NCBI GenBank assembly: GCA_963740415.1
Contig: CAVUEC010000003.1
Span: forward strand, 116,588-180,587
Direction of reading: 5' to 3'
DNA length: 64,000 nt
Source: Candidatus Eiseniibacteriota bacterium
GTDB lineage: Bacteria > Eisenbacteria > RBG-16-71-46 > SZUA-252
Shown: piece by piece, positions 6,084 through 40,855 of the stretch
How positions within the stretch are numbered: the first letter of the stretch is position 1
Layout: every line of letters starts with the position of its first letter
Notes under the pieces: model-generated
Told to the model about the DNA's origin: nothing
Seen by the model: the letters and a program-made list of their open reading frames with translations, nothing else
Database searches by the model: none
Position numbers and translations under genes: made by a program

Positions 6084-7022
6084 CTACCGCGCCGCCGGCT
6101 CCAACGCGAGATCGGCGATGCCCTTCTTGACGTCCTCCGCCGACTTCGCGAGCGCCGCCTTCTCGTCCGCGGACAGCTCCAGCTCCACGATCTTCTCCAC
6201 CCCGCGCGAGCCCAGGATCGCGGGCACGCCCAGGTAGAGATCGCGAAGGCCGTACTCGCCGTTCAGGCACGCGGCCACCGGCAGGAGGCGCTTCTTGTCG
6301 CGAAGGATGGACTCGGCCATCTGGACCGCCGACGACGCGGGCGCGTAGAACGCGCTCCCCGTCTGGAGCAGCTTCACGATCTCGGCGCCGCCGTCGCGGG
6401 TTCGCTGGACGATCTCCGCGAGCCGCGCCGGCTTGATGAACCGGTCGACGGGGATGCCCGATACCGTGGAGTAGCTCAAGAGCGGCACCATGGTGTCGCC
6501 GTGGCCGCCGAGCACCATGGCGTGGACGTCCTCCACCGAGACCCCGATCTCCTGCGCGAGAAACGTGCGGAATCGCGAGGAATCGAGCACGCCGGCCATG
6601 CCCATGACCCGCTCGCGCGGGAAGCCGGTGATGCGGTACGTCAGGTACGCCATCACGTCCAAGGGATTCGTGACCATGATGACGTACGCCTTGGGCGCAT
6701 GGTCGCGGATCGCCTCGGCCACGCCGCGGATGATGTCCGCGTTGGCCTTGAGGAGATCCGCCCGCGACATGCCGGGCTTGCGCGGGAGACCCGCGGTCAC
6801 AATGATGAGGTCGCTGCCCTGGACGGCGCGCAGATCGCCGCTTCCCTCGACCATCGAGTCGTAGCCGCGGACCGGCCCCGCTTCGAGGAGATCGAGGGCC
6901 TTTCCCTTGGCGACGCCTTCGAGAATGTCGATGAGGACGACGTCGCCCAGCTCGGCCTCGGCGGCGTAGAGCGCCGCGGAGGCGCCGACGTTCCCGGCGC
7001 CGACGACCGCGATCTTAGGCAT
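6084..7022 (-). CDS. mdh: Malate dehydrogenase (LDH-like NAD-dependent MDH)
   Basis: [15 protein letters not shown] Rossmann motif, [15 protein letters not shown] and GGHGDTMVP motifs. 311 aa. Confidence 0.9.
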
Positions 7023-7296
7023 GGGCCGCCTCGGTCTCCCGAGTCTTGGGATCGATCGAAACCGACATCTTGCTCTTCCCGCGCCTCTTGAAGACCACGA
7101 CCCCGTCCTTCAGCGCGAAGAGGGTGTCGTCCTTGCCCCGTCCCACGTTGAGGCCGGGGGACACCGCGGTGCCGCGCTGGCGGATGATGATGTTGCCCGC
7201 CTTGACCCACTCGCCGCCGAACCGCTTGACGCCCAACCGCTGCGACGAGGAGTCGCGGCCGTTCTTGGAACTGGATACTCCTTTTTTGTGCGCCAT
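7015..7296 (-). CDS. rpmA: 50S ribosomal protein L27
   Basis: [28 protein letters not shown]... is the canonical L27 N-terminus, with a short C-terminal extension. Overlaps the mdh start by 8 bp. Confidence 0.9.
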
Positions 7297-7318: not shown

Positions 7319-7642
7319 TTATCCGCGGATGTCCAGGATCTTCACCCGCGTCAGGGTGTCCCGGTACCCGATGCGACGGCGGTACTTCTTCCGCCGCTTA
7401 TACACTCCCACCTTGATCTTGGGGCCCCGCTCCGTGCCGAGGACCTGCACCTTAACGGAGGCGCCCTCGACGACGGGGGTCCCAATCTTGACGCCCGTGC
7501 CGTCCGCGATCAAGAGCACACGGTCGAACGTCACCTGCGTGCCCGGCTCCGCCCCCATGTGAGGAAGAACGTGCTCCTCCTCGGCGGCGACCCGGTACTG
7601 GAGGCCCATGGCCTCGATCACTGCATAGCGTGCCGATGTCAT
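7319..7642 (-). CDS. rplU: 50S ribosomal protein L21
   Basis: 107 aa, L21-like (YAVIE..G.QYRV...VLL). Located immediately upstream of rpmA. Confidence 0.88.
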
Positions 7643-7655
7643 TTCATCCCTCGTT

Positions 7656-9209
7656 TCAGTGTTCGAACTGCTTCGTGATCTCCTCGAACGTCTTCCCGCG
7701 GAAAAGCCGGATCTCGTCCCGTCTTAGCGACGGATCGTCCCGGATCTCCACGCGGAACCGGTACTGCTTCTCCAAACGCTCCAGCCGGTCGGCGTTTTGC
7801 TCGACCAGATGAACCGCCACATCCGGATGGACGCGGAGAAGGAGCTGCCGCTCCTTCGCGCGCTGCCCCACCCGTCTCAACATCCGCTCGATCTTGAGCA
7901 TCGCGCTCGAGAGCGAGAGGACGCGGCCCGAGCCCTCGCAGGCCGCGCAATTCTCCGTGAAGAAGTTCGCCAGGCTCGGCCGCTGACGCTGGCGGGTCAT
8001 CTCGACCAACCCCAGATCGCTCACTGCGAACGCCTTTGTCCGGGACCGGTCGCGTTTCAGCCGGTTCCGCAGGGTGTCCACGACCGCCTTCCGATTCGCC
8101 TCGTCCTCCATGTCGATGAAGTCGAGGACGATGATTCCTCCCAGGTCGCGGAGCCGGAGTTGCCGCGCGATTTCCTCCGCGGCTTCCATGTTCGTTTTGA
8201 GAATCGTCTCCTCTTGGCTCTTCTTCCCGGTAAAGCGCCCTGTATTCACGTCGATCGCGACCAACGCCTCCGTCTGATCGATCGTGATGTACCCGCCCTT
8301 CCGCAGCCACACCTTCCGCTCCATCGCCTTCTCGATCTCGCCCTCGATGCCGAAGTGATCGAAGATCGGAGCCTCGCCGCGGTAGAGCTTCACACGCGAT
8401 TTGAGCTGCGTCGCGTAGGTCGTCAGGTACTTGAGTATCTGCTGGTATTCCTCCTTCGAGTCGATCGTGAGCTGGGTGACGTCCTCGGTGAAGATGTCCC
8501 GGATCAGCCCGGTGGTGAATTCCATTTCTTGGTGTAGCAGCGAGGGGGCCTTGGACCTCTGCCCCTGCTTCTCGATCTTGTCCCAGAGCTGCTCCAGATA
8601 CTTGATGTCGCTCTGGAATTCCTTCTTCCCCTGCTCGGCCCCAACCGTCCGGACGATCACGCCCGCGTCGCGAGGGCGGAGCTCCTTGAGCAACGTCTTG
8701 AGCCTCGAACGCTCTCCCCGGTCCTCGATCTTCCGGGAGATCCCCACGTGCTCGTGGCCCGGCATGTACACGAGGTAGCGGCCGGGGAGCGAGACCTGCG
8801 TCGTGACGCGCGGCCCCTTGGTCCCGATCGGCTCCTTGGTGATCTGGACCAGGATCTCCAGGCCCTTCTTGAGAACATCCTCGATTCGGGGCACCGTCTC
8901 GTCACGGCGGCCCCGGCCGCCTCCGCCGCGCTTCCGATCCTCGCCTTCGTCTTCCTCTTCGAAGAGGTCATCGAGATCGGTGTCCGGCTGAAGGTCGGAC
9001 GCGTGAAGAAACGCGCTCTTGTCGAGTCCGAGATCCACGAAGGCCGCCTGCATCCCCGGCAGCACCGCGTTCACCCTTCCCTTGTAGATGTCACCGACGC
9101 GGCGGACCGCCTCGGGGCGCTCCACCATGACCTCGACGAGTTCCTTCTCCTCGAGGATGGCGATCCGCGTTTCGCTGGGACTGGCGTTAATTATTATTTC
9201 TCGGCGCAT
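7656..9209 (-). CDS. rng: Ribonuclease G (RNase E/G family)
   Basis: [27 protein letters not shown]... S1 domain plus the RNase E/G catalytic core (DxxxGxxxVDFIDM). 517 aa. Confidence 0.85.
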
Positions 9210-12189
9210 TCACCTCCAGGGCGGGGTCCGACGGACCCGGATTCTCCGGGTCTACAGGCACAGGTCGCCAGAACGCCGATTCCTCGAGTGCCTCGAGGGG
9301 TGTGCAGAGTTGGCCGCCCCGCTCCACCCACATCGCCTCGCGGCGAACGAGCAGAAGCCGGGGGTCGAAATCGAACGACGGCAGGAGACTCTTGAAGAGC
9401 AGATCCGGCCGCAGGTATCCGGTAGCCTGAAGTCGCGAGGAGAGCCGGATGCCGAGGCGCTCCCCGTCCGAGGCCATTTCGATCGAAGCAACGGCGAGCC
9501 GCGCGTTCACGGTCTTCCCCTTCTGTCCGTGGCTCTGCTTGGCGACGAGCCACTCGCCCGAGACAAGGAAGGCCGCCAAGTTGCGCTCCAGCTCCTGCCG
9601 CAGCAGGTGGACGCTTTCGCCCCGCGCGAGCTGATCCATCAAGTATTGGGTGAGAAAGACCGAGTAGTCGGCGCGTCCGATGGCCGACATCAGCGAATCC
9701 ATCGTCTTGCCGAACGGGCGCCCTTCCACGATTCGAATTCCCTCGGGAAAGACCTCGTTCATCGCCGCGATCACGTCCCAGGAGCACGGCTGCGCCAGGT
9801 CCAGATCGAAGTACTCCGCGGCGCTCGTCGCGCCCAGGGAAAGCGGCGGGCCGTACGCGATCTTGGCGTGGCGGTTGAAGCCCTGCGTGTACGCGATCGG
9901 AATCTTGGCCACGCGGATCGCCCGGTCGAAGATCCGAACCAGGTCGAGGTGGGACGTGAACCGCGCGATTCCCTCTTTGACGTACGCGACCCGGTAGCGG
10001 GTGGCCTGGGGTCCCCGGGTCGTGGTCGGCCACACCCGGCGCCGGCGGCCGTAGGCGCGGGCGTCGCCGTTCGAGTCCGCGCCCGCGTTGCCGTTTCCGT
10101 TCGTTTTCGCGTCGCCGTTTCCATTCGCCTTCGCGTGGCCGTTTCCGTTCCCGTGACCGTTTCCGTTCGGTGCCGTCGCGGCCGCCGGCATTGCCTCGAC
10201 CGCCGGCGCCACTTCGGCCTTCAGCGCCTCGATCGGCTTGGCCTCCAGGTCCCGAACGCGGGACTCAATCTCCGCGGTGGTGACCTCGGGCGGGATCGAA
10301 AAGTCGAGCGTGGCCGGCGTGGCGCCCTGGCCCGGCGCGAGCTGGAGCGAAAGGTGGCGCCCTTCGCGCGCCTTGGGCGCGAAGCAGGGAGCGCCGCAGC
10401 GATAGCACGCGTGGTCGCGGCAATCGGGGGTCAGCGCGGCCGCGTAGGCCTTGCCCCGCTCCGACAACAGAAATTTCTTCACCACCGGGGTCCGGATGTG
10501 GTCCCACGGCAGCTGCTCCTCCAGATCGCGCGGCCTCAGATACACCGCCGGGTCCATGCCGATGCTGTCGAACGCGCGCATCCAGAGATCGAAATCAAAG
10601 CACTCCGACCACCCGTCGAAACGCGCTCCCATCCGCCACGCCGCCTCGAGCGCGTCCGCGGTGCGAACGTCGCCGCGCGCGAACACGCCCTCGAGAAACG
10701 CCGTCTTCGGCTCGCGCCACTTGAGGCGGACGTTGTTCATGCCGCGGAAGCCCAGCTTGAGCCGGTCGATCTTCCGCCGGAGCGTGTCCATGTCGTCCTG
10801 GAGCTCCCACTGGAACGGGGTGTGGGGCTTGGGCACGTGGGGCGAGAGCCCGACATTGAAGTGCATCCGCTTGTTGCCGCCCTTGGCCCATTCCTGCGAC
10901 TTCCGCAAGGTGTCCGCGATTCCGTCGACGTCCGCGTCGGTTTCGGTGGGGAGGCCGATCATGAAGTAGAACTTGATGCCGCCCCAGCCCTGGTCGCGCG
11001 CGAGCTTGACCGAGTACTCGAGCTCGGCCTCGTCGATTCCCTTGTTGATGACGTCGCGCATCCGCTGCGTGCCGGCCTCGGGCGCGAACGTGATGCTCCC
11101 GCGGCGGCCCTGGCCGATCTTCTCGGCCACGGAGGGCGCGAGCGTTCCGACGCGCGTGGAGGGCAGCGAAATCGAGACGCCCTGTTCGTTGGTGAACCGG
11201 TCCAATTCGTGGAGCACCACGGGAAGCTGCTTGTAATCGGTGGTGGAGAGCGACAGGAGCGACACCTCGTCCCACCCCGCGTGGACGATGCCGCACTGAA
11301 CTTCCTTCACGACCTCGTCCGCGCGCTTTTCCCGCAGCGGCCGGTTCATGTACCCCGCGAGGCAGAACCGGCAGCCGCGCGTGCAGCCTCGCATCACCTC
11401 CACGCCCAGACGGTCGTGGGTGATCTCGGTCGGGCTGATCAGCGGCTTCTCGGGGTAGTACTCGGGCAGCAGCGACGCGACGTAGCGAAAGCGCGGCTTG
11501 GCCGAGGGCGCGTCCGGCTTGGGATTTCGCGCCACGTAGCCGAACGGGTTCTTCACCTCGTCGTAGAGCGCCGGAACATAGATCCCTTCCAGGGCCCCCA
11601 TGCGCGCGAGCACCTCGGAGCGCGGCATGCGCGTCGCGCGGCGCTCCGCCATGAGATCGCAGAGCTCCTCGATCACCTCTTCCCCGTCGCCGATCACGAA
11701 CCCGTCGATGAACGGCGCCAGGGGCTCCGGATTCACCGTGCAGAGTCCGCCCGCGATCACGATCGGATCGTCTTCGCGGCGATCCTTGGTGCGAAGGGAC
11801 ATCTGCGCCAGGTCGATCATCGTGAGGACGTTCGTGAAGGACAGCTCGTATTGGAGCGAGAAGCCGATCATGTCGAACTCGCGCGCCGGAGTGCGCGATT
11901 CGAGCGAGTAGAGCGGGATCGATTCCGCCCGCATGAGCCGCTCCATGTCGCTCCACGGCGTGAAGCAAAGCTCGGCCAAGCCGTCCGGCCGGCGGTTCAC
12001 GATGTGGTAGAGGATCTTCAGCCCGAGGTACGACATCCCGATTTCGTAGAGATCCGGGAAGCAGAGAAGCACGCGGGCCTTGGCCTGCGATGGATCTTTG
12101 CGCGCCGCGTGGAGAAAGCTACCCGTGTACCGGCTCGGTTTGGTCACGAGCGGCAGGTATGCCTCGTCCAGAGATCGGAGCTTGTCCAT
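9187..12189 (-). CDS. Fused radical SAM protein: TIGR03960-like B12-binding/radical SAM domain (N-terminal) joined by an Asn/Gly-repeat linker to a TIGR03936/DUF2344-like 'radical SAM-linked' domain (C-terminal)
   Basis: N-terminal half carries the CxxxCxxC cluster (MRGCTRGCRFC) and a FxE/GLPTET-type radical SAM core. The linker reads NGNGHGNGNGHAKANGNGDAKTNGNGNAGADSNGD. The C-terminal ~350 aa (ARFTSHLDLVRIFDRAIRVAKIPIAYTQGFN...) is DUF2344-like. Start taken at the Met of MDKLRSLDEAYLPL (12189). Overlaps the rng start by 23 bp. Confidence 0.75.
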   Translation of the reverse strand: MDKLRSLDEAYLPLVTKPSRYTGSFLHAARKDPSQAKARVLLCFPDLYEIGMSYLGLKILYHIVNRRPDGLAELCFTPWSDMERLMRAESIPLYSLESRTPAREFDMIGFSLQYELSFTNVLTMIDLAQMSLRTKDRREDDPIVIAGGLCTVNPEPLAPFIDGFVIGDGEEVIEELCDLMAERRATRMPRSEVLARMGALEGIYVPALYDEVKNPFGYVARNPKPDAPSAKPRFRYVASLLPEYYPEKPLISPTEITHDRLGVEVMRGCTRGCRFCLAGYMNRPLREKRADEVVKEVQCGIVHAGWDEVSLLSLSTTDYKQLPVVLHELDRFTNEQGVSISLPSTRVGTLAPSVAEKIGQGRRGSITFAPEAGTQRMRDVINKGIDEAELEYSVKLARDQGWGGIKFYFMIGLPTETDADVDGIADTLRKSQEWAKGGNKRMHFNVGLSPHVPKPHTPFQWELQDDMDTLRRKIDRLKLGFRGMNNVRLKWREPKTAFLEGVFARGDVRTADALEAAWRMGARFDGWSECFDFDLWMRAFDSIGMDPAVYLRPRDLEEQLPWDHIRTPVVKKFLLSERGKAYAAALTPDCRDHACYRCGAPCFAPKAREGRHLSLQLAPGQGATPATLDFSIPPEVTTAEIESRVRDLEAKPIEALKAEVAPAVEAMPAAATAPNGNGHGNGNGHAKANGNGDAKTNGNGNAGADSNGDARAYGRRRRVWPTTTRGPQATRYRVAYVKEGIARFTSHLDLVRIFDRAIRVAKIPIAYTQGFNRHAKIAYGPPLSLGATSAAEYFDLDLAQPCSWDVIAAMNEVFPEGIRIVEGRPFGKTMDSLMSAIGRADYSVFLTQYLMDQLARGESVHLLRQELERNLAAFLVSGEWLVAKQSHGQKGKTVNARLAVASIEMASDGERLGIRLSSRLQATGYLRPDLLFKSLLPSFDFDPRLLLVRREAMWVERGGQLCTPLEALEESAFWRPVPVDPENPGPSDPALEVNAPRNNN
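10060..10190. repeat. Imperfect ~18-bp tandem DNA repeats (gccgtttccgttcgc-like) encoding the NG-rich linker of the radical SAM fusion
   Basis: Plus-strand string ...gccgtttccgttcgttttcgcgtcgccgtttccattcgccttcgcgtggccgtttccgttcccgtgaccgtttccgttc... is visible by eye. Confidence 0.5.
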
Positions 12190-12288
12190 CCCAGCCTCCC
12201 CGCTCTTGGGTCCAGCGCAACCCACTGAGATCGTTGGAGATACAGCCGAAACTGATGAGCACGGGCGTTCCGCGCCAAGCGTGAGACC

Positions 12289-17941: not shown

Positions 17942-18436
17942 TCAGGCCTCGTCCGTCAGCAGGTGCCTCTTCGACACGCGCTCGACGACGGCGAGAAGCA
18001 GGATCACGATCCCGCTCGTGTAGAGCGCCGAAGGAAGGGCGATGCGGACCATCTGGAGCAGGAACGCGCCCAGGTCCCCCGCGGTCGTCACCGCGAAGTA
18101 GATCGCGTCGTGCACGAGCATCGCGAAGAAGAAGAATGCGAACCGGACGCCGAGATTGGAGCGGTGCACGCGGAACCCAGCCTTGGCCACCAGGAAGCCG
18201 ACGATCGATTTGCACAGCGCGTTCAGGCCCAGGGGCCCGGGCGCATCCAGGTCCTGGACCAGGCCCACGAGGAATCCCGCCGATGTCCCCGCGATCGGCC
18301 CCCGCATCCACCCGAGGTAGACCACGTACGCCACGAGGAGATCCGGCCGGATGCCCGCGATCTCCATCCGGAAGAGGAGCGTCGCCTGGAGAATGAGGAC
18401 CACGACCAGAACGATCACGTCCCGGGCGCCCTTCAT
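17942..18436 (-). CDS. mreD: Rod shape-determining protein MreD
   Basis: Small polytopic membrane protein MKGARDVIVLVVVLILQATLLF... Its ATG overlaps the stop of the MreC C-terminal frame (ATGA). Position after mreC. Confidence 0.7.
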   Translation of the reverse strand: MKGARDVIVLVVVLILQATLLFRMEIAGIRPDLLVAYVVYLGWMRGPIAGTSAGFLVGLVQDLDAPGPLGLNALCKSIVGFLVAKAGFRVHRSNLGVRFAFFFFAMLVHDAIYFAVTTAGDLGAFLLQMVRIALPSALYTSGIVILLLAVVERVSKRHLLTDEA

Positions 18437-19309
18437 GGCGTGCGCACGCCCTCGGAGTCGGCCGCGGCCGAATCGACTTCCGCCGGCTGGAGGAAGAGGG
18501 ACGCCGGCGAGGATCCGCGAAGCTGGGACGGCAGGTAGACCAGGATCTCCTCGAGCGTCCGGAAGTTCACGGCCGGCTTCACGGAGATTTCCTTCATGAG
18601 GCCGTTGGCCTCCAGGCCGACCTTGGAAACGGTGCCGATCCGGATACCGAGCGGAAAGATCCCGCCGAGGCCGGACGTGACGACGAGATCGCCCGACCTG
18701 GACGTCTTCCTGCGACGAAATGTAGAGCAGGTTGAGCGTCGGTTGCGTGCCGTACTCCCACTGCAGCACGCCGTCGACGCGGCTTCGCTCGACGCGCGCC
18801 GCCACCGCGCAGTCATGGTGGAGCAGCGTGAGGATCCGCGCCTGGTGGATCGTGGCGCGCTCGATGCGGCCCACGAGGCCCTCGGGCGTGAGCACGGCGC
18901 GCCCGGGCTCAACCCCCTCGGCCAGCCCCTTGTCGATGGTCATGCTGCCGCCCAGGCGGTCGAGGCTCCGCCCGATGACGTTCGCCGCGGCGAGGCTATA
19001 CGGGTGGCGCTCCTCCAGCTTCAGAAGCTCGCGCAGCCGGACGTTTTCCTGTCGCTCGCCCCGCAGCGCGTCCGTCTCGATTTGAAGTCTCGCGAGCCGC
19101 TCGCGGAGCCGTTGATTGTCCCAGTAGAGACCCACCGAATGGTCCACCCAGCCGACCGCGGTTTCGAACGGGCCCAGGAGCGTGTGCTGGATGAACCAGG
19201 CCACGCGCGCCTGTTCGTGGCGCTCCAGCAGCATCATGGCGAGCGAGAGGGAACAGGCTACGACGAGGACGGTCCAATCGGTACGGCGGGAGAGCAGATT
19301 TCGGAGCAT
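18433..19309 (-). CDS. mreC: Rod shape-determining protein MreC, interrupted by an apparent +1 frameshift near 18691-18693
   Basis: The N-terminal 205 aa sit in one frame and end ...YISSQEDVQVG. The conserved C-terminal part DLVVTSGLGGIFPLGIRIGTVSKV... continues in the adjacent frame (ORF 18433-18912). One extra G in gtcgggcgat would restore VGDLVVTSG. Confidence 0.75.
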
Positions 19310-24710: not shown

Positions 24711-26371
24711 CGCGGAATTCCCGGAGGCGGGGACGTGGGCGTGGCCGGAACCGTGGGCCCGGTGCGCGCGAGAAGCGATACCAGCTTCTCCTCGGCCTCC
24801 CGCGCCGCGGCCACGGAGTTCCGGTTTCCGTTGCTCAAGATGGAGAAGATGCTGCGCTCACCGTTCGCGCGGGTCACGAAGCCGGAGAGCGCGCTCACGT
24901 TGGTCAAGGTCCCGCTCTTCCCCCGGAGCGCCGCCGTCGAGTCGAGCGCCCCGAACCGGTTCTTGAACGTTCCCAGAGCGCCGGGGCGCGCCAGGCCGTC
25001 CCGGAACGCCGCCCCGATCGCGGGATCGCGGTCGAGCGACGTGAGCCAGGACACAATCGCCCGCGGCGTCGCGAGGTCCTGGGGTGAGAGCCCCGATCCG
25101 TCCACCAGCGAGAGATCGAACGTGTCGATCCCCGACTCGCCGACGATCCGCATCAGCTCGACGAGGCCCTGCTCGCGCCGCTTCCCGATCGGCGCGGGGT
25201 CCAGAAGCCGGAGGATGGCTTCGGCCTCGGCGTTCAAGCTCATCGCGTTGACGATTCCCACGACTTCCGCTGCCGGAGGTGAGAGCAGAGAGGTCACGCC
25301 GGTCGCGCGCCGGGAGTCGACCAAGGTCCAGCCCCATGCCGAGGCCGAGGCGGCGCTGTCGGCCGGAGTCGAAGCCGCGAGTCCCTCGATCCGTTCCGCG
25401 TCCACGCCCGTGGCGCTCCCGGGCTTCAGCACGCGCACCGACGCGTCGACCTCGATCCCGGCCCTTCGCATCGCGCCGAGCAGCATCAGCCCCGCCGTCG
25501 AGTCCGGATCGAACACCGCGACCTGGCGCTTCACCATTCCTCCGCGCGGGACCCTTCCGGTCACTTCGACCACCCGCGAGCCCGGGGCCCGGAAGACGTC
25601 GATGTGGCCGGATGATCCGGTGTCGCCGACGGCGGGCCTTCCCCGCGCCACGAGCGAAACCTCAGGCGGATCGAACTGATACGTCACCCCTCTCGACGTG
25701 GACGTCGCGATCAGGGTCACGGCGTTGCCGTTCGCGAGGACCGCGTTGACGGGCGCCCCGTAGGCATACGCGAAATCGTCATGCGCCCAGCCCGGTCCGT
25801 AGGACTCCGGCGCGAACACGGAGCCGTCGATCCAGAGCGTTCCCTGGAAGCGCGCCAAACCGCCCGCGTGGAGCAAGAATGCGAGCGAGTCGAGGAGCCC
25901 GCGCGATCCGGGCGCGATCAGCTGGTAGACGTCGGGCATTCCGCTGGCCCGCAGGACGAGATCTCCTTTGAACCGGACGTCCGTCCCGTCCTTTCGCTGA
26001 GAGGCCTTCCCCTTGGCCAGGAGAAGGGTCGGACGGCGGTAGTCGATCCCGTAGCGCCGGAGAAAGCATCCGGTCGTGAAGAGCTTGACGTTGCTACCGG
26101 GAATGAGCCGGCGCGCGGGCTGGATCGACACCAGGGTGTCGCCCTGGTCGAGCGAGGTGACCAGGGCGGCCACCTCAGCCTGGCCCAGCACACCCGCTCC
26201 GAGGAAGTCGAGGGAATCCGAGAGCGAGCCCGAGAGACAGCCCGGAAAGCAGGCCGAGGCGTTGGCCGAGGCGGCCGGGATCGTAAGGGCCACCCAGGCC
26301 GCCAGAATGAGTTCGGGGCGGATCCGTGAGGATCCACCCCGAATGGGGTCGCCCGATCTACGTCGGATCAA
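24707..26371 (-). CDS. dacB: D-alanyl-D-alanine carboxypeptidase/endopeptidase (PBP4 family, peptidase S13)
   Basis: SxxK (GSNVKLFTTG), SGN-like and KSGT motifs, with signal peptide ILAAWVALTIPAASANA. No ATG is present, so a TTG at 26371 is proposed and the start is uncertain. Confidence 0.7.
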   Translation of the reverse strand: MIRRRSGDPIRGGSSRIRPELILAAWVALTIPAASANASACFPGCLSGSLSDSLDFLGAGVLGQAEVAALVTSLDQGDTLVSIQPARRLIPGSNVKLFTTGCFLRRYGIDYRRPTLLLAKGKASQRKDGTDVRFKGDLVLRASGMPDVYQLIAPGSRGLLDSLAFLLHAGGLARFQGTLWIDGSVFAPESYGPGWAHDDFAYAYGAPVNAVLANGNAVTLIATSTSRGVTYQFDPPEVSLVARGRPAVGDTGSSGHIDVFRAPGSRVVEVTGRVPRGGMVKRQVAVFDPDSTAGLMLLGAMRRAGIEVDASVRVLKPGSATGVDAERIEGLAASTPADSAASASAWGWTLVDSRRATGVTSLLSPPAAEVVGIVNAMSLNAEAEAILRLLDPAPIGKRREQGLVELMRIVGESGIDTFDLSLVDGSGLSPQDLATPRAIVSWLTSLDRDPAIGAAFRDGLARPGALGTFKNRFGALDSTAALRGKSGTLTNVSALSGFVTRANGERSIFSILSNGNRNSVAAAREAEEKLVSLLARTGPTVPATPTSPPPGIPR

Positions 26372-27408
26372 AACGCGACGCTGAGCGAAAGCTGCTGATT
26401 GTCGTTGAAGAACTGGCCCACCGCGGTTCCCGCCCAATCGACGTGGAACGGAGTGTCGCCGAGCTTGAATCCGAAGCCGGCGCCGTAGCTCCAATTGTAC
26501 AGATAGTCCTGCTGGCGGTCTTCTTCGTTGAGCGGGAACTGTCCGGTGAACCCGGCGCGAAGGGCCAGCCACTCACTGAAGTTGAACTCACCTCCAAGTC
26601 GATACTCGTCGGTCGAGAAGTTGTTTCCCTGGAACGTTCCCATGACCGTGAGGTTGCGCTTTTCGCCCATCTTGAAGTCGTAGGTCAGCCCCATCTGAAG
26701 ATACGACGGAAGCTCGAACGAAGCCGCCTGGAGCCGCACGACGTGGGGCTGCGCCGCGGGATCGCCCGGCAGCGCCAGCCGCTGTTCAAAGCTGGGCCCT
26801 CCGTAGCGCATGGTCGGCCCGACGTTCTTCATGCAGAACCCGAACCGCAGGCCCCGCCAGCCGGTGTCGTACTGGACGCCAAGATCGACGGCGAAGCCGC
26901 TCGCCGTCGCGTCGGCCACCTTCTCGTTGATGAAGGAGCCGGTGAGGCCGACCAGCACCCGGTCCGTCATTCTACGACCGTAGGTCAATCCGACCACCGC
27001 GAAATTTGGCGTCAGGATTTGTCCGGTGCCCTCCGGAGCATCCTCCGTGGTCACCGTGATGTCCCCGACGTTCAGAACCTTGACCGTCACTCCAACGTTT
27101 CCCTGGGAACCCAGTCCCGTCGAGAACCCGGCGTAGTTCACGTCCGCGTCCGCGAGGTACGAGCTCCACGATGCCATCGCCTCCGATTGATCGGTCGACG
27201 CGATCGAGGCGGGATTGTAGAAGACGTTGCCGAGCCCGCTGCCCATTGCGACCGAGGACCCGCCCAGCGCGACCGAAGCCGCGCCCACCGGAACGCGGAG
27301 CTCCTGCGCGCCGGCCGTTCCCACCCGATCCAATCCGCCCGCCCAGGCCGTGCCCGCGACCAGAAGCGTCGCGACGGGCAGAACGAGTGTCACCACGAAC
27401 CGCTTCAT
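26368..27408 (-). CDS. Outer-membrane beta-barrel protein (possible PorV/FadL-like; family unverified)
   Basis: Signal peptide MKRFVVTLVLPVATLLVAGTAWA, alternating beta-strand pattern, aromatic-rich, and a C-terminal ...LSLSVAF ending in Phe. Confidence 0.55.
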   Translation of the reverse strand: MKRFVVTLVLPVATLLVAGTAWAGGLDRVGTAGAQELRVPVGAASVALGGSSVAMGSGLGNVFYNPASIASTDQSEAMASWSSYLADADVNYAGFSTGLGSQGNVGVTVKVLNVGDITVTTEDAPEGTGQILTPNFAVVGLTYGRRMTDRVLVGLTGSFINEKVADATASGFAVDLGVQYDTGWRGLRFGFCMKNVGPTMRYGGPSFEQRLALPGDPAAQPHVVRLQAASFELPSYLQMGLTYDFKMGEKRNLTVMGTFQGNNFSTDEYRLGGEFNFSEWLALRAGFTGQFPLNEEDRQQDYLYNWSYGAGFGFKLGDTPFHVDWAGTAVGQFFNDNQQLSLSVAF

Positions 27409-27468
27409 ATGTCCTACCCTCCGTCCGTTGGAAGGAATCATCCTTCGTGGCATTCCGTTCATACCGGC

Positions 27469-30444
27469 CTAGAAGTTATCGAGCCGCTCTTCTTCGACGA
27501 AGACGGCGACCCGATCGGTTTTGTTGCCCACCCCGTCCACGTCCAGCCGCCAGATGTAGACCCCGCTGGCGACCGGGAGATTGCGGTCCGTGTTCAGGTC
27601 CCAGTTGATGGTGGCGACCGACGCCTGGTCGGACGTCGTCGCCTCCCGCGAAATCGTTCTCACCAGGTCGCCGCCCAGGTTGAAGATCCGGATCGTCACC
27701 TTGTGCGACGCCGGAATGTTCGTGAACTTGAGCACCCGGTCGAACTGGGTCAGCTCGTACTGCGAGTGCGCGTAGTAGGGATTCGGCACCGCGAGGCACT
27801 TCTTCAAGTCGTTCCCCACCACCGTTCCGGCCGCCGTCCCGGCGATCACCGTCCGGAACTGATACGCGTCGGCGGACGTGAACCGCTGGCTGATGATCCG
27901 GATTGTGGTCGGCGGCGGGATGTCTCCGACGAAGTTGGTGTCCGCCAGCTCGAAGTCGAACCGGCCCAGGGTCTGATCCGAACCGTCCGGAACGTAGTCG
28001 GTCGATTTGGTGCCCGGGGTCGTCCAGGCGATCGAGGCGTACGGGATCTCCCGGAAGTAGAGCCGGTCGCCCCAGGTCCAAGACCCGCTCAGATCGATAT
28101 CCCGCACCATCGCCGACAGCTTGACGTCGTCGGACGCGTCGGAGAGCGAGTTGAAGCCCAGGTCCCATACCTCGAAGGGTTGCTTGAAGGTCGAGACGAA
28201 CGACACCTCGCCGCTCGCGTAGTTCCAGCAGTAGTCGGTGGTGTCTGGGAGAACGCGGATCTCATAGTCGTGGTTCGTCGCCCCCAGGAACGTGAAGGGC
28301 CCCAGCCCGCCAAAATCCAAGAAGAACCACGTCCCCGTCGAATCCGGGTTCTCCGGCGTTAGATCGGTGATCGTGCTGTCGGCCCGGAGCTCGCCCAGCG
28401 CGGCGACGCCGCGCGGCGCGGTCACGCGCGGCATGAAGCCTTCCACCACCGGGCTGTCAAATCCGCCCCCGATGTTCGACTGATCCGCCAGAAGCGTGTC
28501 GCCGGTGGTGGTGTTCGTCAGCCACCAGTGCTCCAGGTCGTCGAACGTGACGTTGTAGGTATTCCCCGTGATCGCGTTCTGCGTCACCTGCTCCACGTCC
28601 ACGGCTCCATCGATGTTCAAAGGTCCGGCCGAGATCGGTGTGGCCGAGGTGCTGAAGACGGCGCTGCTCGTACCGGGCGACGCGCGGATGGGTGTTCGGG
28701 CGCTCTCCAAGATCTCGGAAATAGTGCCGATGTCGTTTCCGCCAACGGTGTAAGGGTTGACGTTGTTCACGTCGTACGAGTACGCGGTGACGGCGAAGTA
28801 GTAATCCTTGTTGTTGACCAGCTTGCCGCCTTTGATCTTGTCGTCGGTGATGTCGATCTGGAACTGGACCCCACCGTCGTTCCCCGCGGCCTTGAGGACG
28901 CGCTCCACGACCCCGCTGCTAGGCACGAACTCGTCCGAGTAGATGTTCGTGACGCCGTTCGGCTCGTCGTAGGTCGCGAGCACCGTGGGGCTCGCATCCG
29001 AGCTGTTCGAGGACATCTGCCACACCCGGATGCCCTCGAAGTGGAACTCCTGGTTGAGCTGCGTGCTGATCTGGACGTCGCCCACCGGCTCGGAGCCCCA
29101 GATCAGCCGGACGCCCTTGTCCATCGGCTGGACGTACACGGTGGGGGAAGGCGGCGGGGGCGGGATGTCAAAATTGAGATCGAAGACCACCTGCGCCGTC
29201 TGGTCCTTGCTCTTCATGTCGGCGACCGAGGCGACCCGGTCGTTCCCCTGGCCCACGATGATCGCCGTCACCACCTCCTGCGAATCCCCCGGCATCATCG
29301 TGAAGGGGCCCGAGGAGAGGAAGAGGCGGCGGTCGGCCGGGTTCGAGTCGAGCCAGTTCGTCGGGCCGTTGGTCCCGCCCACGTTCAGTCCCGAAACCTG
29401 GAAGCTCGTGATCGGCTGCAGCAGGTCGTCCTGGACGTGAATGGGCGAGCCGTCCGCCTTGAGGCCGCTCATGTAGTTGTAGGTCTCGTTGGCCGAGGCG
29501 GGATCGGTCCCGTTGATGTACTTGTTGAACGAGGTCATGCCCAGGGTGTCGATGACGACGCCCAGGGTGTCCCGAACGATCGGCCCCCGGAAGAAGTCAT
29601 ATCCGACCGCGGGAGGCTTGGAGCCGTACTGCGCGTCCTGGTTGGTCGCGTTGTAGACGAATCCGACGCTGAGCGTGGTGTCGCAACCCACCACGTCGTC
29701 CGTGAAGCCGCCGAGGTCGGGGTCGCTCCAGACCGAGACGTACGTGCTGTCGAGCTGGTTCCCGCCCTTGTTCAGCACCTTCCATTTGACGAAGATGATG
29801 TTCCCGAGGGGCCCGGATCGATTGAACGCGAACACCGTCTGCTGAACTTCGATCCCCAGCGGCGCGGTGCTGCCCGCGTCATTCGTATGCACACCGGGAT
29901 CGGCGTCGTTGAACACGCTCCAGATGGTGGCGTCCCCTAAGAGGAGCGGATTGCCGAGGGAGTCGAGCGGCGCACCCTGGCTCACCGGCCAGTTCAGGTA
30001 ATCGCTGCTGGTCGTGTTCCCCCGGTCGATCCGGTAGTTGCGGAACTCCGGCGCGTCGGGCTGGAAGGTCCCGCCGGCCATCGGCCCGGGGACGAATTCC
30101 TGCGAATACTCGCCGATGGCGGTGCGGACCGAGCCGTTGACCTTGGCACCCACCCAGAGTCCCGAGGCGAACACCGCCGTGTGCGTGCTCCCCTTGGGGT
30201 AGATGAACCCGGCGTTCCCGGTTTCGAGGTCGTAGGCCAGGGACCCATGGTTCGTCACAACCATGTCGAGGTTGTTGACGTCCATGTGGTTGTTGTTGTC
30301 GATGATCGCGGCCGCGCGGCGGACCGGCGACGGCCGTGACTTGACAGCCTTGTGCTTGAATCCCGTCCTCGGCGCGCCCACCGCGTTCGGGGCGGCCAGG
30401 AGCAGCAGCAGGGTCGCCACTCCGACCCATCGCAGCGTTCGCAT
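27469..30444 (-). CDS. Large secreted protein (~990 aa) with T9SS-type C-terminal sorting domain (Por_Secre_tail/FlgD-Ig-like)
   Basis: Signal peptide MRTLRWVGVATLLLLLAAPNAVGA. The C-terminal ~100 aa (AVPNPYYAHSQ...VTIRIFNLGGDLVRTI...WDLNTDRNLPVASGVYIWRL...) matches the C-terminal domains of three other proteins in the window. Confidence 0.6.
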   Translation of the reverse strand: MRTLRWVGVATLLLLLAAPNAVGAPRTGFKHKAVKSRPSPVRRAAAIIDNNNHMDVNNLDMVVTNHGSLAYDLETGNAGFIYPKGSTHTAVFASGLWVGAKVNGSVRTAIGEYSQEFVPGPMAGGTFQPDAPEFRNYRIDRGNTTSSDYLNWPVSQGAPLDSLGNPLLLGDATIWSVFNDADPGVHTNDAGSTAPLGIEVQQTVFAFNRSGPLGNIIFVKWKVLNKGGNQLDSTYVSVWSDPDLGGFTDDVVGCDTTLSVGFVYNATNQDAQYGSKPPAVGYDFFRGPIVRDTLGVVIDTLGMTSFNKYINGTDPASANETYNYMSGLKADGSPIHVQDDLLQPITSFQVSGLNVGGTNGPTNWLDSNPADRRLFLSSGPFTMMPGDSQEVVTAIIVGQGNDRVASVADMKSKDQTAQVVFDLNFDIPPPPPSPTVYVQPMDKGVRLIWGSEPVGDVQISTQLNQEFHFEGIRVWQMSSNSSDASPTVLATYDEPNGVTNIYSDEFVPSSGVVERVLKAAGNDGGVQFQIDITDDKIKGGKLVNNKDYYFAVTAYSYDVNNVNPYTVGGNDIGTISEILESARTPIRASPGTSSAVFSTSATPISAGPLNIDGAVDVEQVTQNAITGNTYNVTFDDLEHWWLTNTTTGDTLLADQSNIGGGFDSPVVEGFMPRVTAPRGVAALGELRADSTITDLTPENPDSTGTWFFLDFGGLGPFTFLGATNHDYEIRVLPDTTDYCWNYASGEVSFVSTFKQPFEVWDLGFNSLSDASDDVKLSAMVRDIDLSGSWTWGDRLYFREIPYASIAWTTPGTKSTDYVPDGSDQTLGRFDFELADTNFVGDIPPPTTIRIISQRFTSADAYQFRTVIAGTAAGTVVGNDLKKCLAVPNPYYAHSQYELTQFDRVLKFTNIPASHKVTIRIFNLGGDLVRTISREATTSDQASVATINWDLNTDRNLPVASGVYIWRLDVDGVGNKTDRVAVFVEEERLDNF

Positions 30445-30477
30445 CCTTAGGCCCTCCTTAGCCCTCGGCATTCGTTC

Positions 30478-33400
30478 CTAGAAGCTCAGCCGGGCGCCGA
30501 AACGCACCTGGCGTGGAATTCCGTGCAGCGTGGGATCGAGCTCGCCCAGCTGGTAACGCCGGAGCGCCCCGTCCTCCCCGTAAGTCCCCGCGTTGGTCGC
30601 CAGGTAGGCCTGACCGTCGGGGGTGTTCAAGAAGTTGGTCGTGGTAGCACTGCCGGTCGACGTGTAGACGGCGTTGATGTTGTCCCGGTCGAGGATGTTG
30701 AGCACCCAGACGTACAGATCCAGGTTCTGCCCTTTCACTCCCACCGTCTTGCCGAGCTTGGCGTCCACCTGGTAGGTCCACGGACCGTACCGGGAGTTCA
30801 GCTGCCCCGTCGGCTCCACGGCGACCGCCGCGAGCGTGACCTCGTTGTAGACCTTGGTCGGCGTGTACGGCGTGCCGCTGGCCAGGTTGAAGAGCACGTT
30901 GAGCCCGGCGTTCTCGAGCATCTTCGAGCCCCACCACGTCGGACCCTGCCCCTTGCCGTACCGGAAGTCGAAGTTCATCGACAGCTTGTGCCGCTGATCG
31001 AACGCCAGCGGCGACGACATCTTCGGAGGCTCCGACGCGGTCCAGGCGATGTTCCGCTGCGACTGGGACACCGAGCCGGTGCCGTTGGCCCACGAGAGGC
31101 TGTAGTTGGCGCTCATCGAGATGTAGCCCGAGCGCCGCATCGTGTAGCCGAGGTCCACGCCCTTGATGGTGGCGAAGTCACGATTCTGATAGGACGAGAA
31201 GCTGTTCGGCGTGGAGGGAATGTTCGTGATCTCGACGAGATCCTTCACGTCCTTGTAGTACGCGACGACCTCGATCTTCGAGCGTTCCGTCGGCGTGTGC
31301 TGGATGCCCAGCTCGTACGCCGTCGTCTGCTCCGGCTTCAGGTTGGGATTGCCGAACCCCACGAAGTAACCGCCCGTCCGGATCTTGTGCTCCAGGAAGG
31401 CGTAGCTCACGTAGAGGTCTTGAAGATTGGGCTGCTGGAAGAACTTCCCGTAGTTGACGTGAACCAGAGTCTGGTCGCTGACCGGGAATCCGACGCCCAG
31501 ACGCGGACTGATCTTGTTGTAGACCTTGGACTCCTCCAGGTCGCCTTCCTGAAGCCGCGAGTCGTTCACGCCGTCCGGATCGAGCGGCCGCGTGTCGCTC
31601 CGCAGCGCCTCGGTCGCGGGCGTCAGGTAGTCCCAGCGAAGGCCCCCGTTGATCACCAGTCCGAGATTTTCGTACTTGCCCTGGACGTAGAGGGACGCGG
31701 CCTTGGGGTGCTTGGGTCCGTCGAGCGGGTCGTCGTAGATCCCGTTCCCGTTGCTGTCCGTGAACGGTTCCCCCGCGTCGTAGCTTCCGTTGCCGTTCAG
31801 ATCTTGAAACGAGTCGCCGCCGTCCAGCTTGTTGCCGAGGGCGTCGTACCCGTAATGGTCGACGTCCCGCGTGTTCGAGACGTAGTCGGCGTCCCACTGG
31901 CCGTTTCCGTTAGCGTCCGTGAACGGCTCGCCCGCCGTGTAGGCGTGGTTTCCGTCGTCGTCGCTGAACTCCTCGCCATAGAGCTGGGTCGGGAAGTAAT
32001 GGTCGTAGTAGCGAAGCGTGTGGCGCTGGTAGTCGCCGCCCGCCTTGAGCTGGAGCGACTTCGAGAGCTGCGTCGCGTAGTCGGCCGCAAAGCCGACGTA
32101 GTTCGAGCTTCTCTTCAAGAAGTCGTCGAAGACGTGGGCCGTCTGGGGGTCCTGATCCCCGTACCAGAAGATGGCTTCGTTCTGGTCGAAGAGCGGGTTT
32201 CCGTTGGGCCTCGAGTACCCGAGCAGATTGTCGAAGTAGACGCCGTCCCCGCGCGTGCGCTCCGTGGTGAATACGTTCGCCTTGAGCTCGTAGTAGGAGC
32301 GGTCGTTCAGGCTGTGGTTCCAGTTCCCGTAGACCGACCAGTTCTTGTCCTGATAGCGCGGAGCGTGATTCAAGTCGAACCGGTAGGCGTTGACGTATTG
32401 CTGCCAGTTGTCCGTGTTGTACGTGCCTCCCAGCTTGAACGTCTTGAGGGGCGACGGCTTCCAGGAGATCTTTCCGATTCCGGACCACGAATCCGAGCTG
32501 TTGGACGGCAGAATCCCGTTTTCGTAGAGCCCGGGCTGGGACGGGTCGGCAATGTCCTGGGTGATGGTGCTGGCCTGGCGGTCCCGGTTGTACTGGCGCT
32601 CGCCGGAGAGGTAAAAGGTGATGTTCTTCATGTTCGGGGTCAGGGGCCCGCCCACGGAGAGCGCGTAGATGTTGTTGTCCAGGGCCGGGGCGTTGTTCCA
32701 GTCGCCCGAAAGGTTGTCGGTGACGCCCTCGATCGAACCGAAGTAGCGGTCCGCTCCTTCGCGGGTTACCACGTTGATCACGCCCGAGTTGATGCGGCCG
32801 TATTCGGCGTTGAACCCGCCCGCCTGAACGACCACCTCGTCCACCGCGTCGTTGTTGATCGCGGTCGTCGAGACGCCGGTCAGCGGATCCTGCTGCGAGA
32901 AGCCGTCGACGTAGTACGCCACCTCGTTGGGCCGCCCGCCGCGGATGATCAGCGTGTTGTTGTTCTGCGCTTCGTTATCGATGTTCAGCTTGAAGTTGAC
33001 CACGCCCGACTGCTGGGCGACGGCGTCCTGATAGCCGCGGAGGGGTTGATTCTTGATCTCCTCGCCCGCCAGGAACTTCGTGGTGGTGGTCACATCCTTC
33101 TGGATGAGAGGCCGTTCCGCGGTGATCTCCACCGGCGCGACGTCGGTCAGGACCGTCGGCTGCATGGAGAACTCAAGCTTGCTGTTGAAGTCGGGGAAGA
33201 CCTCGATCCCTTCCCTCACCTGGGGCACGTACCCCAGCAGCGCCACGCGGACGGTGTACTTCCCAGGGGGAAGGTTGAGAATGAAGTAATTCCCCTTGTC
33301 GTCGGTCGTGGCCCCCCGCTTCAGCTCCGGAATCGTGACCGACGCGAGCCCGATCGGCTCGCTGGTCGCGGCGTCGTGGATCGTGCCGCTGATTCCGCCG

Positions 33401-33498
33401 GTCGTTCCCGCCCAGGCCTTGCCCGAGAAAATAAAAAAGGCGCTCGCCACGAATAAAGTGGCGACGCCAAACCCCCGCCGCATCCGAGGTCGCGTCAT
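30478..33498 (-). CDS. TonB-dependent outer-membrane receptor with N-terminal carboxypeptidase-regulatory-like domain
   Basis: Signal peptide, a CarboxypepD_reg block (GISGTIHDAATSEPIGLASVTI...GKYTVRVALLGYVPQ), a plug domain, a 22-strand barrel, and the C-terminal RFGARLSF. Confidence 0.8.
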   Translation of the reverse strand: MTRPRMRRGFGVATLFVASAFFIFSGKAWAGTTGGISGTIHDAATSEPIGLASVTIPELKRGATTDDKGNYFILNLPPGKYTVRVALLGYVPQVREGIEVFPDFNSKLEFSMQPTVLTDVAPVEITAERPLIQKDVTTTTKFLAGEEIKNQPLRGYQDAVAQQSGVVNFKLNIDNEAQNNNTLIIRGGRPNEVAYYVDGFSQQDPLTGVSTTAINNDAVDEVVVQAGGFNAEYGRINSGVINVVTREGADRYFGSIEGVTDNLSGDWNNAPALDNNIYALSVGGPLTPNMKNITFYLSGERQYNRDRQASTITQDIADPSQPGLYENGILPSNSSDSWSGIGKISWKPSPLKTFKLGGTYNTDNWQQYVNAYRFDLNHAPRYQDKNWSVYGNWNHSLNDRSYYELKANVFTTERTRGDGVYFDNLLGYSRPNGNPLFDQNEAIFWYGDQDPQTAHVFDDFLKRSSNYVGFAADYATQLSKSLQLKAGGDYQRHTLRYYDHYFPTQLYGEEFSDDDGNHAYTAGEPFTDANGNGQWDADYVSNTRDVDHYGYDALGNKLDGGDSFQDLNGNGSYDAGEPFTDSNGNGIYDDPLDGPKHPKAASLYVQGKYENLGLVINGGLRWDYLTPATEALRSDTRPLDPDGVNDSRLQEGDLEESKVYNKISPRLGVGFPVSDQTLVHVNYGKFFQQPNLQDLYVSYAFLEHKIRTGGYFVGFGNPNLKPEQTTAYELGIQHTPTERSKIEVVAYYKDVKDLVEITNIPSTPNSFSSYQNRDFATIKGVDLGYTMRRSGYISMSANYSLSWANGTGSVSQSQRNIAWTASEPPKMSSPLAFDQRHKLSMNFDFRYGKGQGPTWWGSKMLENAGLNVLFNLASGTPYTPTKVYNEVTLAAVAVEPTGQLNSRYGPWTYQVDAKLGKTVGVKGQNLDLYVWVLNILDRDNINAVYTSTGSATTTNFLNTPDGQAYLATNAGTYGEDGALRRYQLGELDPTLHGIPRQVRFGARLSF

Positions 33499-33782
33499 GA
33501 TCCGCTCTCCCATCCTCTGCTGTGGAAGCGCCATTTTGAGGGTCACTCCATCCATGAGTGATCGTGCCCAAGCATCCCGTCGCCCCTTGCCGGCTCATCC
33601 TGACCCGGCCCCTGCGGGCTGGTTCTTGGTCCCTCTATCGGCGGCTCTCCACGCGTTCCGGCTTTATTTCTTTAGTTCGTCCCCCATCACTGGCCCACAC
33701 CGTTTCGCGGCCATCTGGCCGCGACGCCTCTACTCCATTAACGCTAGAAGGGTCCCAACCGGGCTGTCAACTGTTTTTGGCG

Positions 33783-40670: not shown

Positions 40671-40744
40671 TGGGGGATCGTCCAGTGGTAGGACACGTGG
40701 CTCTGGACCACGGTACAGGGGTTCGAATCCTCTTCCCCCAGCCA
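40671..40744 (+). tRNA. tRNA-Gln (anticodon CUG), CCA encoded
   Basis: Hand-folded cloverleaf. The acceptor stem UGGGGGA/UCCCCCA is like E. coli tRNA-Gln. D-stem GUCC/GGAC, anticodon stem CGUGG/CCACG with loop CUCUGGA, T-arm AGGGG-UUCGAAU-CCUCU, discriminator G, then CCA. Confidence 0.85.
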
Positions 40745-40780: not shown

Positions 40781-40855
40781 GGCGCTATCGTCTAGGGGTC
40801 AGGACGGGTGGTTCTCAGCCATCAAACCGGGGTTCGAATCCCCGTAGCGCTACCA
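40781..40855 (+). tRNA. tRNA-Glu (anticodon CUC), CCA encoded
   Basis: Hand-folded. Acceptor stem GGCGCUA/UAGCGCU, D-arm UCGUCUAGGGGUCAGGAC like E. coli tRNA-Glu, anticodon loop UUCUCAG, T-arm CGGGG-UUCGAAU-CCCCG, discriminator A, then CCA. Confidence 0.85.

Follow-up and report, generated by a model that had tools for sequence, protein, structure and literature searches.

The 64,000-nucleotide stretch of Candidatus Eiseniibacteriota DNA considered here (contig CAVUEC010000003.1, positions 116,588 to 180,587; the window) has a G+C content of about 67%. On its minus strand, at 9187..12189, lies a gene in which a radical S-adenosylmethionine (SAM) enzyme family, TIGR03960, is joined to a second family, TIGR03936/DUF2344. 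It is followed by the gene for an Rne/Rng-family ribonuclease (RNase), here called rng, and by rplU and rpmA, which encode the ribosomal proteins L21 and L27. The open reading frame of the fusion gene begins with an ATG at 12189 behind the sequence GGGGAGG, and its stop codon ends at 9187. The product is 1000 residues long. An earlier note on this DNA gave 1001, a figure that counts the stop codon; the fusion itself is as described there. Genes called independently on the source contig (ENA ERZ25039492 contig_9347) include the identical 1000-residue product.

Both families are matched within this one polypeptide far above their curated cut-offs, as the earlier note had proposed. The NCBIfam hidden Markov model (HMM) TIGR03960 scores 660.8 bits over residues 12-603, where 462.3 are required, and is matched over profile positions 4-600 of 605; TIGR03936 scores 154.7 bits over residues 731-953, with a cut-off of 71.9. 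Three Pfam families agree with this division: Radical_SAM_N2 (201.6 bits, above its cut-off), Radical_SAM PF04055 (65.5 bits against a gathering score of 29.5) and DUF2344 PF10105 (143.8 bits against 23.8). The CxxxCxxC motif that binds the radical SAM [4Fe-4S] cluster was found on re-translation as CTRGCRFC (residues 269-276; 11362..11385, minus strand). The protein is a further member of known, catalogued families, to which the window adds nothing unusual except a longer linker between the two parts.

A search with the whole protein yielded at least 8000 candidates. All of the 120 matches listed have both domains; the closest named relatives among them come from Candidatus Eisenbacteria metagenome-assembled genomes, and a JGI name, 'radical SAM family uncharacterized protein/radical SAM-linked protein', is already in use. 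The DUF2344 profile found 13,263 representative clusters (50% identity) in 1.84 billion proteins. Almost all of the 150 matches listed stand alone and are about 210-290 residues long, and a few are fusions of 850-1000 residues. Other DUF2344 architectures, for example a fusion to an RNase, were sought and none was found, the longer matches being gene fragments or proteins with low-complexity extensions. Eighty genome loci were surveyed, from Bacillota, Calditrichota, Ignavibacteria, Desulfobacterota, Myxococcota, Planctomycetota, Methylomirabilota, Chloroflexota and Fibrobacterota. Both parts are detected in 77 of them, fused in 24 and split in 53, and in every one of the 77 the radical SAM part comes first and DUF2344 directly behind it. 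Because the parts are fused or adjoining in all these loci, the fusion represents one form of a well-known gene pair rather than a peculiarity of the window. No publication on the function of TIGR03960 or of TIGR03936/DUF2344 was found in the literature, in keeping with the earlier statement that their chemistry and substrate are undescribed.

The DUF2344 domain (residues 731-953; 9331..9999, minus strand) is predicted to have the fold of a pseudouridine (Ψ) synthase of the TruA type. An AlphaFold2 model of residues 716-1000, calculated from 44 sequences, has a mean predicted local distance difference test score (pLDDT) of 87, and in this model the two-lobed Ψ-synthase fold is complete. Foldseek, run on an independent full-length model, recovered PUS3, TruA and PUS1 with the C-terminal part. 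Among the structure matches of the domain are Ψ-synthase-like proteins that lack catalytic activity and serve in ribosome assembly (9hny_FB and 6yxx_ED). In the whole PDB the DUF2344 sequence profile matched a single protein, Thermus thermophilus TruA, at a non-significant E-value of 0.29. Pfam places DUF2344 with the Ψ-synthase domain families (2021 paper, PMC7955657), and no discussion of what this relationship means for function was found in the literature, though the relationship is implicit in the Pfam database.

The position that corresponds to the catalytic Asp is probably not acidic in DUF2344. The loop GPPLSLG (residues 780-786; 9832..9852, minus strand) lies opposite GRTD60AGV of TruA in the hhalign register, and the residue facing the Asp is Ser in the window protein and Ser, Ala, Pro or Gly across the family. 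The column composition of the aligned loop in 56 family members is [GA]x[PA]L[SAPG][VL]G, and acidic residues occur in none of the 56. Y842, which is aligned to Tyr118 of TruA, is kept in 52 of the 56, and its register is backed by the HMMER alignment of the DUF2344 profile to T. thermophilus TruA. Two hhalign runs against TruA gave the same register, at a low probability of about 3% (P about 0.013). The TruA profile used was shallow: the homologue search returned only Enterobacterales sequences of at least 81% identity. Several other polar residues of DUF2344, namely S746-H747-L748-D749, H774, E792, D795, R950 and four Arg of helix 1, are strongly conserved and may line the cleft. With moderate confidence, these alignments suggest that DUF2344 keeps the RNA or nucleotide cleft of a Ψ synthase and has lost the pseudouridylation chemistry.

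It is very improbable that DUF2344 is a genuine, highly divergent Ψ synthase that works apart from the radical SAM domain. The full fold and the retained active-site Tyr would suit such an enzyme, but the loop opposite the catalytic loop has no conserved Asp or Glu, none of 44 DUF2344 members matches the Pfam PseudoU_synth or TruB/TruD models even at E=10, and in none of the 77 loci with both parts detected does the domain stand without its radical SAM partner. No truA gene was found in the window or in the examined loci.

The TIGR03960 region (residues 12-603; 10381..12156, minus strand), as outlined by the NCBIfam and Pfam matches, the family alignment, Foldseek and profile matches, is made up of an N-terminal B12-binding-like Rossmann domain, the radical SAM core (residues 263-427) and a conserved C-terminal extension. 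The Rossmann domain corresponds to the Radical_SAM_N2 match at residues 56-206. The three cysteines of CTRGCRFC, C269, C273 and C276, are conserved in 100% of 79 family members, and the family alignment also contains invariant 'GG' and 'GDGEE' motifs. A second Cys cluster, CRDHACYRCGAPC (C590/C595/C598/C602; 10384..10422, minus strand), lies at the end of the region. Its cysteines C590-x4-C595-x2-C598 are invariant in the 79 sequences, most of which have a fourth Cys 2-10 residues further on (here C602), and the cluster may be an auxiliary iron-sulfur or zinc site.

The full-length model has a moderate pLDDT of 69, which falls below 50 across residues 599-725 and in the linker and the cluster loop. 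Its top structural matches in Foldseek are MgmA (1.3e-14), TsrM (3.3e-10) and TokK (1.2e-9), and further matches are AprD4 (2.3e-9), OxsB (9.0e-9) and CysS (2.3e-8). AprD4 has the same fold without cobalamin and shows that the fold can do without B12. The B12-binding family PF02310 stays below its cut-off in the fusion protein (25.1 against 32.1 bits), and only the related Pfam family PF19864 is matched; the residues D46-x-Y-x-x-G51 stand where a DxHxxG motif would be expected. In its predicted fold the radical SAM part resembles the B12-type enzymes, and it may bind cobalamin.

In sequence, the profile of the radical SAM core matches MgmA best (4e-13), RimO next (5e-9 and 1e-8, over residues 262-529) and MiaB at 2e-3. 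MiaB acts on transfer RNA (tRNA) and RimO on ribosomal protein S12. Membership of the MiaB/RimO/MtaB group was considered and rejected: the fusion protein scores 25.5 against 251 bits with TIGR00089, 21.7 against 357 with the RimO model and 18.5 against 357 with that of MtaB, and Pfam gives neither a TRAM nor a UPF0004 domain.

These matches bear on the nature of the substrate. The fusion protein might modify a translation or RNA-decay protein, such as L21, L27, a further ribosomal protein or the neighbouring Rne/Rng RNase, with DUF2344 as the scaffold to which that protein docks. The actions of RimO on S12 and of MgmA on methyl-coenzyme M reductase make such an activity conceivable by analogy; the best match in both sequence and structure, MgmA, is a protein glutamine C-methylase, RimO comes next in sequence, and the gene adjoins rplU-rpmA or rplS in many loci. 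We consider a protein target unlikely, since all characterised proteins with a DUF2344-type fold bind RNA, the conserved Tyr of the cleft suits a nucleotide pocket, and no neighbouring protein is common to all loci.

The linker between the two parts (residues 604-730; 10000..10380, minus strand) was delimited by alignment, by Tandem Repeats Finder (TRF) and by its low pLDDT. It consists, in this order, of a lineage-specific insert of about 50 residues, an Asn/Gly-rich low-complexity stretch and a conserved [YF]GRR motif. The Asn/Gly-rich stretch, NGNGHGNGNGHAKANGNGDAKTNGNGN (10084-10168, minus strand; residues ~675-702), is encoded by an imperfect 24-nucleotide tandem repeat of 2.8 copies with 86% matches. 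The stretch varies in length and sequence even between relatives of 76-81% identity, which suggests that expansion of the linker is driven by the repeat.

The rng gene (7656..9209, minus strand) encodes 517 residues. Its product matches TIGR00757 (Rne/Rng) with 520.1 bits against a cut-off of 325.95 and the Pfam family RNase_E_G (PF10150) with 367 bits. The name RNase G, used in the earlier note, holds as to the family and fails at the more specific level, where the RNase G equivalog NF008689 reaches 469.2 of the 594 bits of its cut-off; judged by these scores, the accurate label is 'Rne/Rng-family, RNase G-sized'. The protein has an S1 domain with an acidic and Gly/Arg insert, a catalytic core and a Zn-link-like motif, CAACEGSG, at residue 421. 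The motifs IDVNTG at 319 and LDFIDM at 362 presumably correspond to the catalytic Asp motifs of D303 and D346 in Escherichia coli RNase E, and CAACEGSG to its Zn-link. The insert, at 8895-8993 (minus strand; residues 73-105), interrupts the S1 domain and consists of an acidic stretch and, behind it, a low-complexity segment rich in Gly and Arg.

The ATG of rng, at 9209, has GGAGGTG just upstream and lies 23 nucleotides before the end of the fusion stop codon. The resulting 23-nucleotide overlap (9187..9209, minus strand) is read directly from the DNA, as it was in the earlier note, and recurs with the same length in an 88%-identical relative (locus L081). Because GGAGGTG stands just upstream of the rng ATG at this overlap, translational coupling of the two genes is plausible. 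The pair is directly upstream of rplU and rpmA, as claimed before: rplU (7319..7642, minus strand) starts 13 nucleotides past the rng stop, and rpmA (7015..7296, minus strand) follows, both being identified by NCBIfam and Pfam matches. The end of rpmA overlaps by 8 nucleotides the start of a malate dehydrogenase gene, mdh (6084-7022), which sits at the usual position of obg. The order rpmA-mdh is also found in L081 and in an unrelated locus, L064.

Upstream of the fusion gene, on the same strand, are mreB, mreC/D, pbp2, rodA, lgt, aroE and comF, in an order identical to that of L081. A spacer of 99 nucleotides (12190..12288, minus strand) separates comF from the fusion gene. In the alignment with the 88%-identical relative two blocks of the spacer are conserved, 12218-12242 and 12269-12287 (minus strand), and the remainder diverges; TATCTCCAACGATCTCAGTGGGTTG is identical in both genomes, and GTCTCxCGCTTGGCGCGGA has one variable position. 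The blocks may be a non-σ70 promoter or a leader element. No Rfam family, σ70-like promoter or convincing terminator was found in or around the operon, the spacer included.

The synteny with RNase E/G and rplU-rpmA, stated in the earlier note from comparative genomics, was reproduced over the surveyed loci in many phyla. Sixty-five loci are informative, having at least 2 kb of sequence downstream of the pair. The next gene is rng in 39 of the 65, rplU and rpmA are present in 23, and at least one RNA or ribosome gene lies on the same strand within 6 kb downstream in 48. The distance between DUF2344 and rng could be measured in 38 cases; there are 5 overlaps and 13 gaps of 0-30 nucleotides, so that 18 of the 38 are at 30 nucleotides or less. 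Where rng is missing, the pair often stands directly before rplU-rpmA (L054 and L061) or, in several Oscillospiraceae and Acutalibacteraceae, before rplS, followed by lepB and the gene for an RbgA-like GTPase. Neighbours in other loci are unrelated (ligA, mfd, a short-chain dehydrogenase/reductase gene and proB). The genes mreCD-pbp2-rodA are found upstream of the pair in many Clostridia as well. The gene rsmB, for the 16S ribosomal RNA (rRNA) m5C methyltransferase, lies directly downstream of the radical SAM and DUF2344 genes, without rng, in the Ignavibacteria loci L006 and L010, and upstream on the opposite strand in L039, L062 and L077 (Geobacteraceae/Desulfuromonadaceae).

The close association with rng could mean that the pair assists or regulates the Rne/Rng RNase and makes no covalent change in RNA. 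As an iron-sulfur or SAM-sensing RNA chaperone, for example, it might pass substrates on to the RNase or adjust the activity of that enzyme. The overlap with rng suggests stoichiometric co-synthesis, and the inactive Ψ-synthase-like assembly factors named above show that RNA-binding proteins of this kind exist. Yet the cluster cysteines and many core residues are invariant throughout the family, which argues for real radical chemistry, and a sizeable share of the loci have no adjoining rng; this explanation is distinctly unlikely.

The target could also be a small molecule or a free nucleotide, and the position next to rng and rplU a relic of an ancient gene order without functional meaning. 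The structural neighbours TokK, OxsB, AprD4 and CysS act on small molecules, rng is missing in 26 of the 65 informative loci, and the order mre-rodA...rplU-rpmA is conserved across phyla. On the other hand, rng follows closely or with an overlap in many phyla, a relocated pair again adjoins ribosome genes, DUF2344 folds like a Ψ synthase, and the sequence of the radical SAM core shows a relationship to RimO and MiaB. A small-molecule substrate is in our view improbable.

The reading we favour is that the fusion protein is a radical SAM enzyme directed at RNA or the ribosome, with the Ψ-synthase-like module as its RNA dock, and we regard it as about evenly balanced between right and wrong. The target would belong to the translation apparatus and would most probably be an RNA, either an rRNA precursor or a tRNA. 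RNA modification is suggested because the layout mirrors that of MiaB and RimO, with a Rossmann-like domain, a radical SAM core and a C-terminal fold of an RNA enzyme, and because the two parts are obligately paired, are tightly packed on Rne/Rng and large-subunit genes, and have ribosome genes as neighbours again after rearrangement. An RNA- or ribosome-directed system was already the candidate put forward in the earlier note, and the Ψ-synthase fold of DUF2344 lends it independent backing.

A sequence of events can be postulated for such an enzyme. With its catalytic Asp lost and the Tyr of the cleft retained, DUF2344 would no longer form pseudouridine. It would serve as an RNA-docking module, probably flipping a nucleotide out of the RNA, and would bring this target nucleotide to the active site of the radical SAM core. 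SAM would be cleaved reductively at that site, and the resulting 5'-deoxyadenosyl radical would abstract a hydrogen atom, with which the modification begins. If cobalamin is bound by the Rossmann domain, the modification would be a C-methylation. Through co-translation with the RNase and with L21 and L27, it would be coupled to rRNA processing and to the assembly of the large subunit. A more far-reaching proposal, made tentatively and with some doubt, is that this family is the first case of a radical SAM enzyme in which a catalytically dead Ψ-synthase fold flips out bases and recognises RNA, and that it installs an as yet unassigned rRNA or tRNA modification, possibly a cobalamin-dependent C-methylation, during ribosome maturation in coordination with processing by the co-translated Rne/Rng enzyme.

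Several points weigh against an RNA-modifying enzyme. Binding and modification of RNA are both deduced from sequence, models and analogy. The loss of the Asp is read from profile alignments of low probability (about 3%), and the low confidence of the full-length model (pLDDT 69) means that the geometry between the domains is not fixed by it. Among radical SAM enzymes of solved structure the nearest relative, MgmA, acts on a protein, and several structural neighbours act on small molecules. The standalone DUF2344 proteins are not markedly basic, their median isoelectric point being 7.9. An RNA-related neighbour is missing in 17 of the 65 informative loci, a count that equally favours a small-molecule target, and mreBCD-pbp2-rodA ... 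rng-rplU-rpmA is an ancient gene order, so the adjacency may in part reflect descent and not function.

The family is very large, is spread over many bacterial phyla and lies in one of the most conserved bacterial gene neighbourhoods. If it does modify RNA, it would be a new class of enzyme for rRNA or tRNA modification and for radical SAM chemistry, it would represent a new use of the Ψ-synthase fold, and it might account for an orphan modification. The reading of DUF2344 as a Ψ-synthase fold without the Asp provides a concrete, testable hypothesis for the whole family.

Some other features of the window are recorded here. A reading frame of 455 residues at 17942-19309 (minus strand) contains Pfam matches to MreC (111-207) and MreD (299-441), and is either an MreC-MreD fusion or two in-frame genes without a stop between them; in L081 a separate MreD of 164 residues is called. 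Two reading frames on the minus strand, 27469-30471 (1000 residues; G+C content at third codon positions, GC3, 0.90) and 26368-27462 (364 residues; GC3 0.81), have a strong coding signal and no Pfam match, and lie directly downstream of a gene resembling a TonB-dependent receptor (30478-33555). Two tRNA genes, 40671-40741 and 40781-40852 (plus strand), are 40 nucleotides apart and are the only Rfam matches in the window. Because the second overlaps the listed start of a reading frame of 947 residues (40808-43651), the true start of that frame probably lies further downstream.

Compared with the TIGR03960 ('rSAM_fuse_unch') and TIGR03936/DUF2344 families, the window protein is typical in the order of its parts, in its fusion and in the adjoining Rne/Rng gene. 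It differs in the longer linker of its lineage, with the insert of about 50 residues and the Asn/Gly-rich repeat. With the class B radical SAM enzymes MgmA, TsrM, TokK, OxsB, CysS and the B12-free AprD4 it shares the arrangement of a Rossmann domain and a radical SAM domain, whereas its PF02310 score is sub-threshold and none of those enzymes has a Ψ-synthase-like partner.

The DUF2344 domain differs from TruA, Pus1 and Pus3 and from the inactive Ψ-synthase-like assembly factors in sequence, with an identity of 8-14% and no HMM match. Unlike the TruA/Pus1/Pus3 family, it has no acidic residue at the position aligned with the catalytic Asp and is always coupled to a radical SAM enzyme. MiaB, RimO and MtaB, whose substrates belong to the translation machinery, have the same three modules as the fusion protein, a Rossmann-like N-terminal domain, a radical SAM core and a C-terminal domain of a nucleic acid-binding type; their core is related to it in sequence, and a second Cys cluster is present in both. 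The fusion protein, however, has neither the TRAM domain nor the N-terminal Cys triad of UPF0004. Its second cluster is placed behind the core, at residues 590-602, and its C-terminal module is Ψ-synthase-like.

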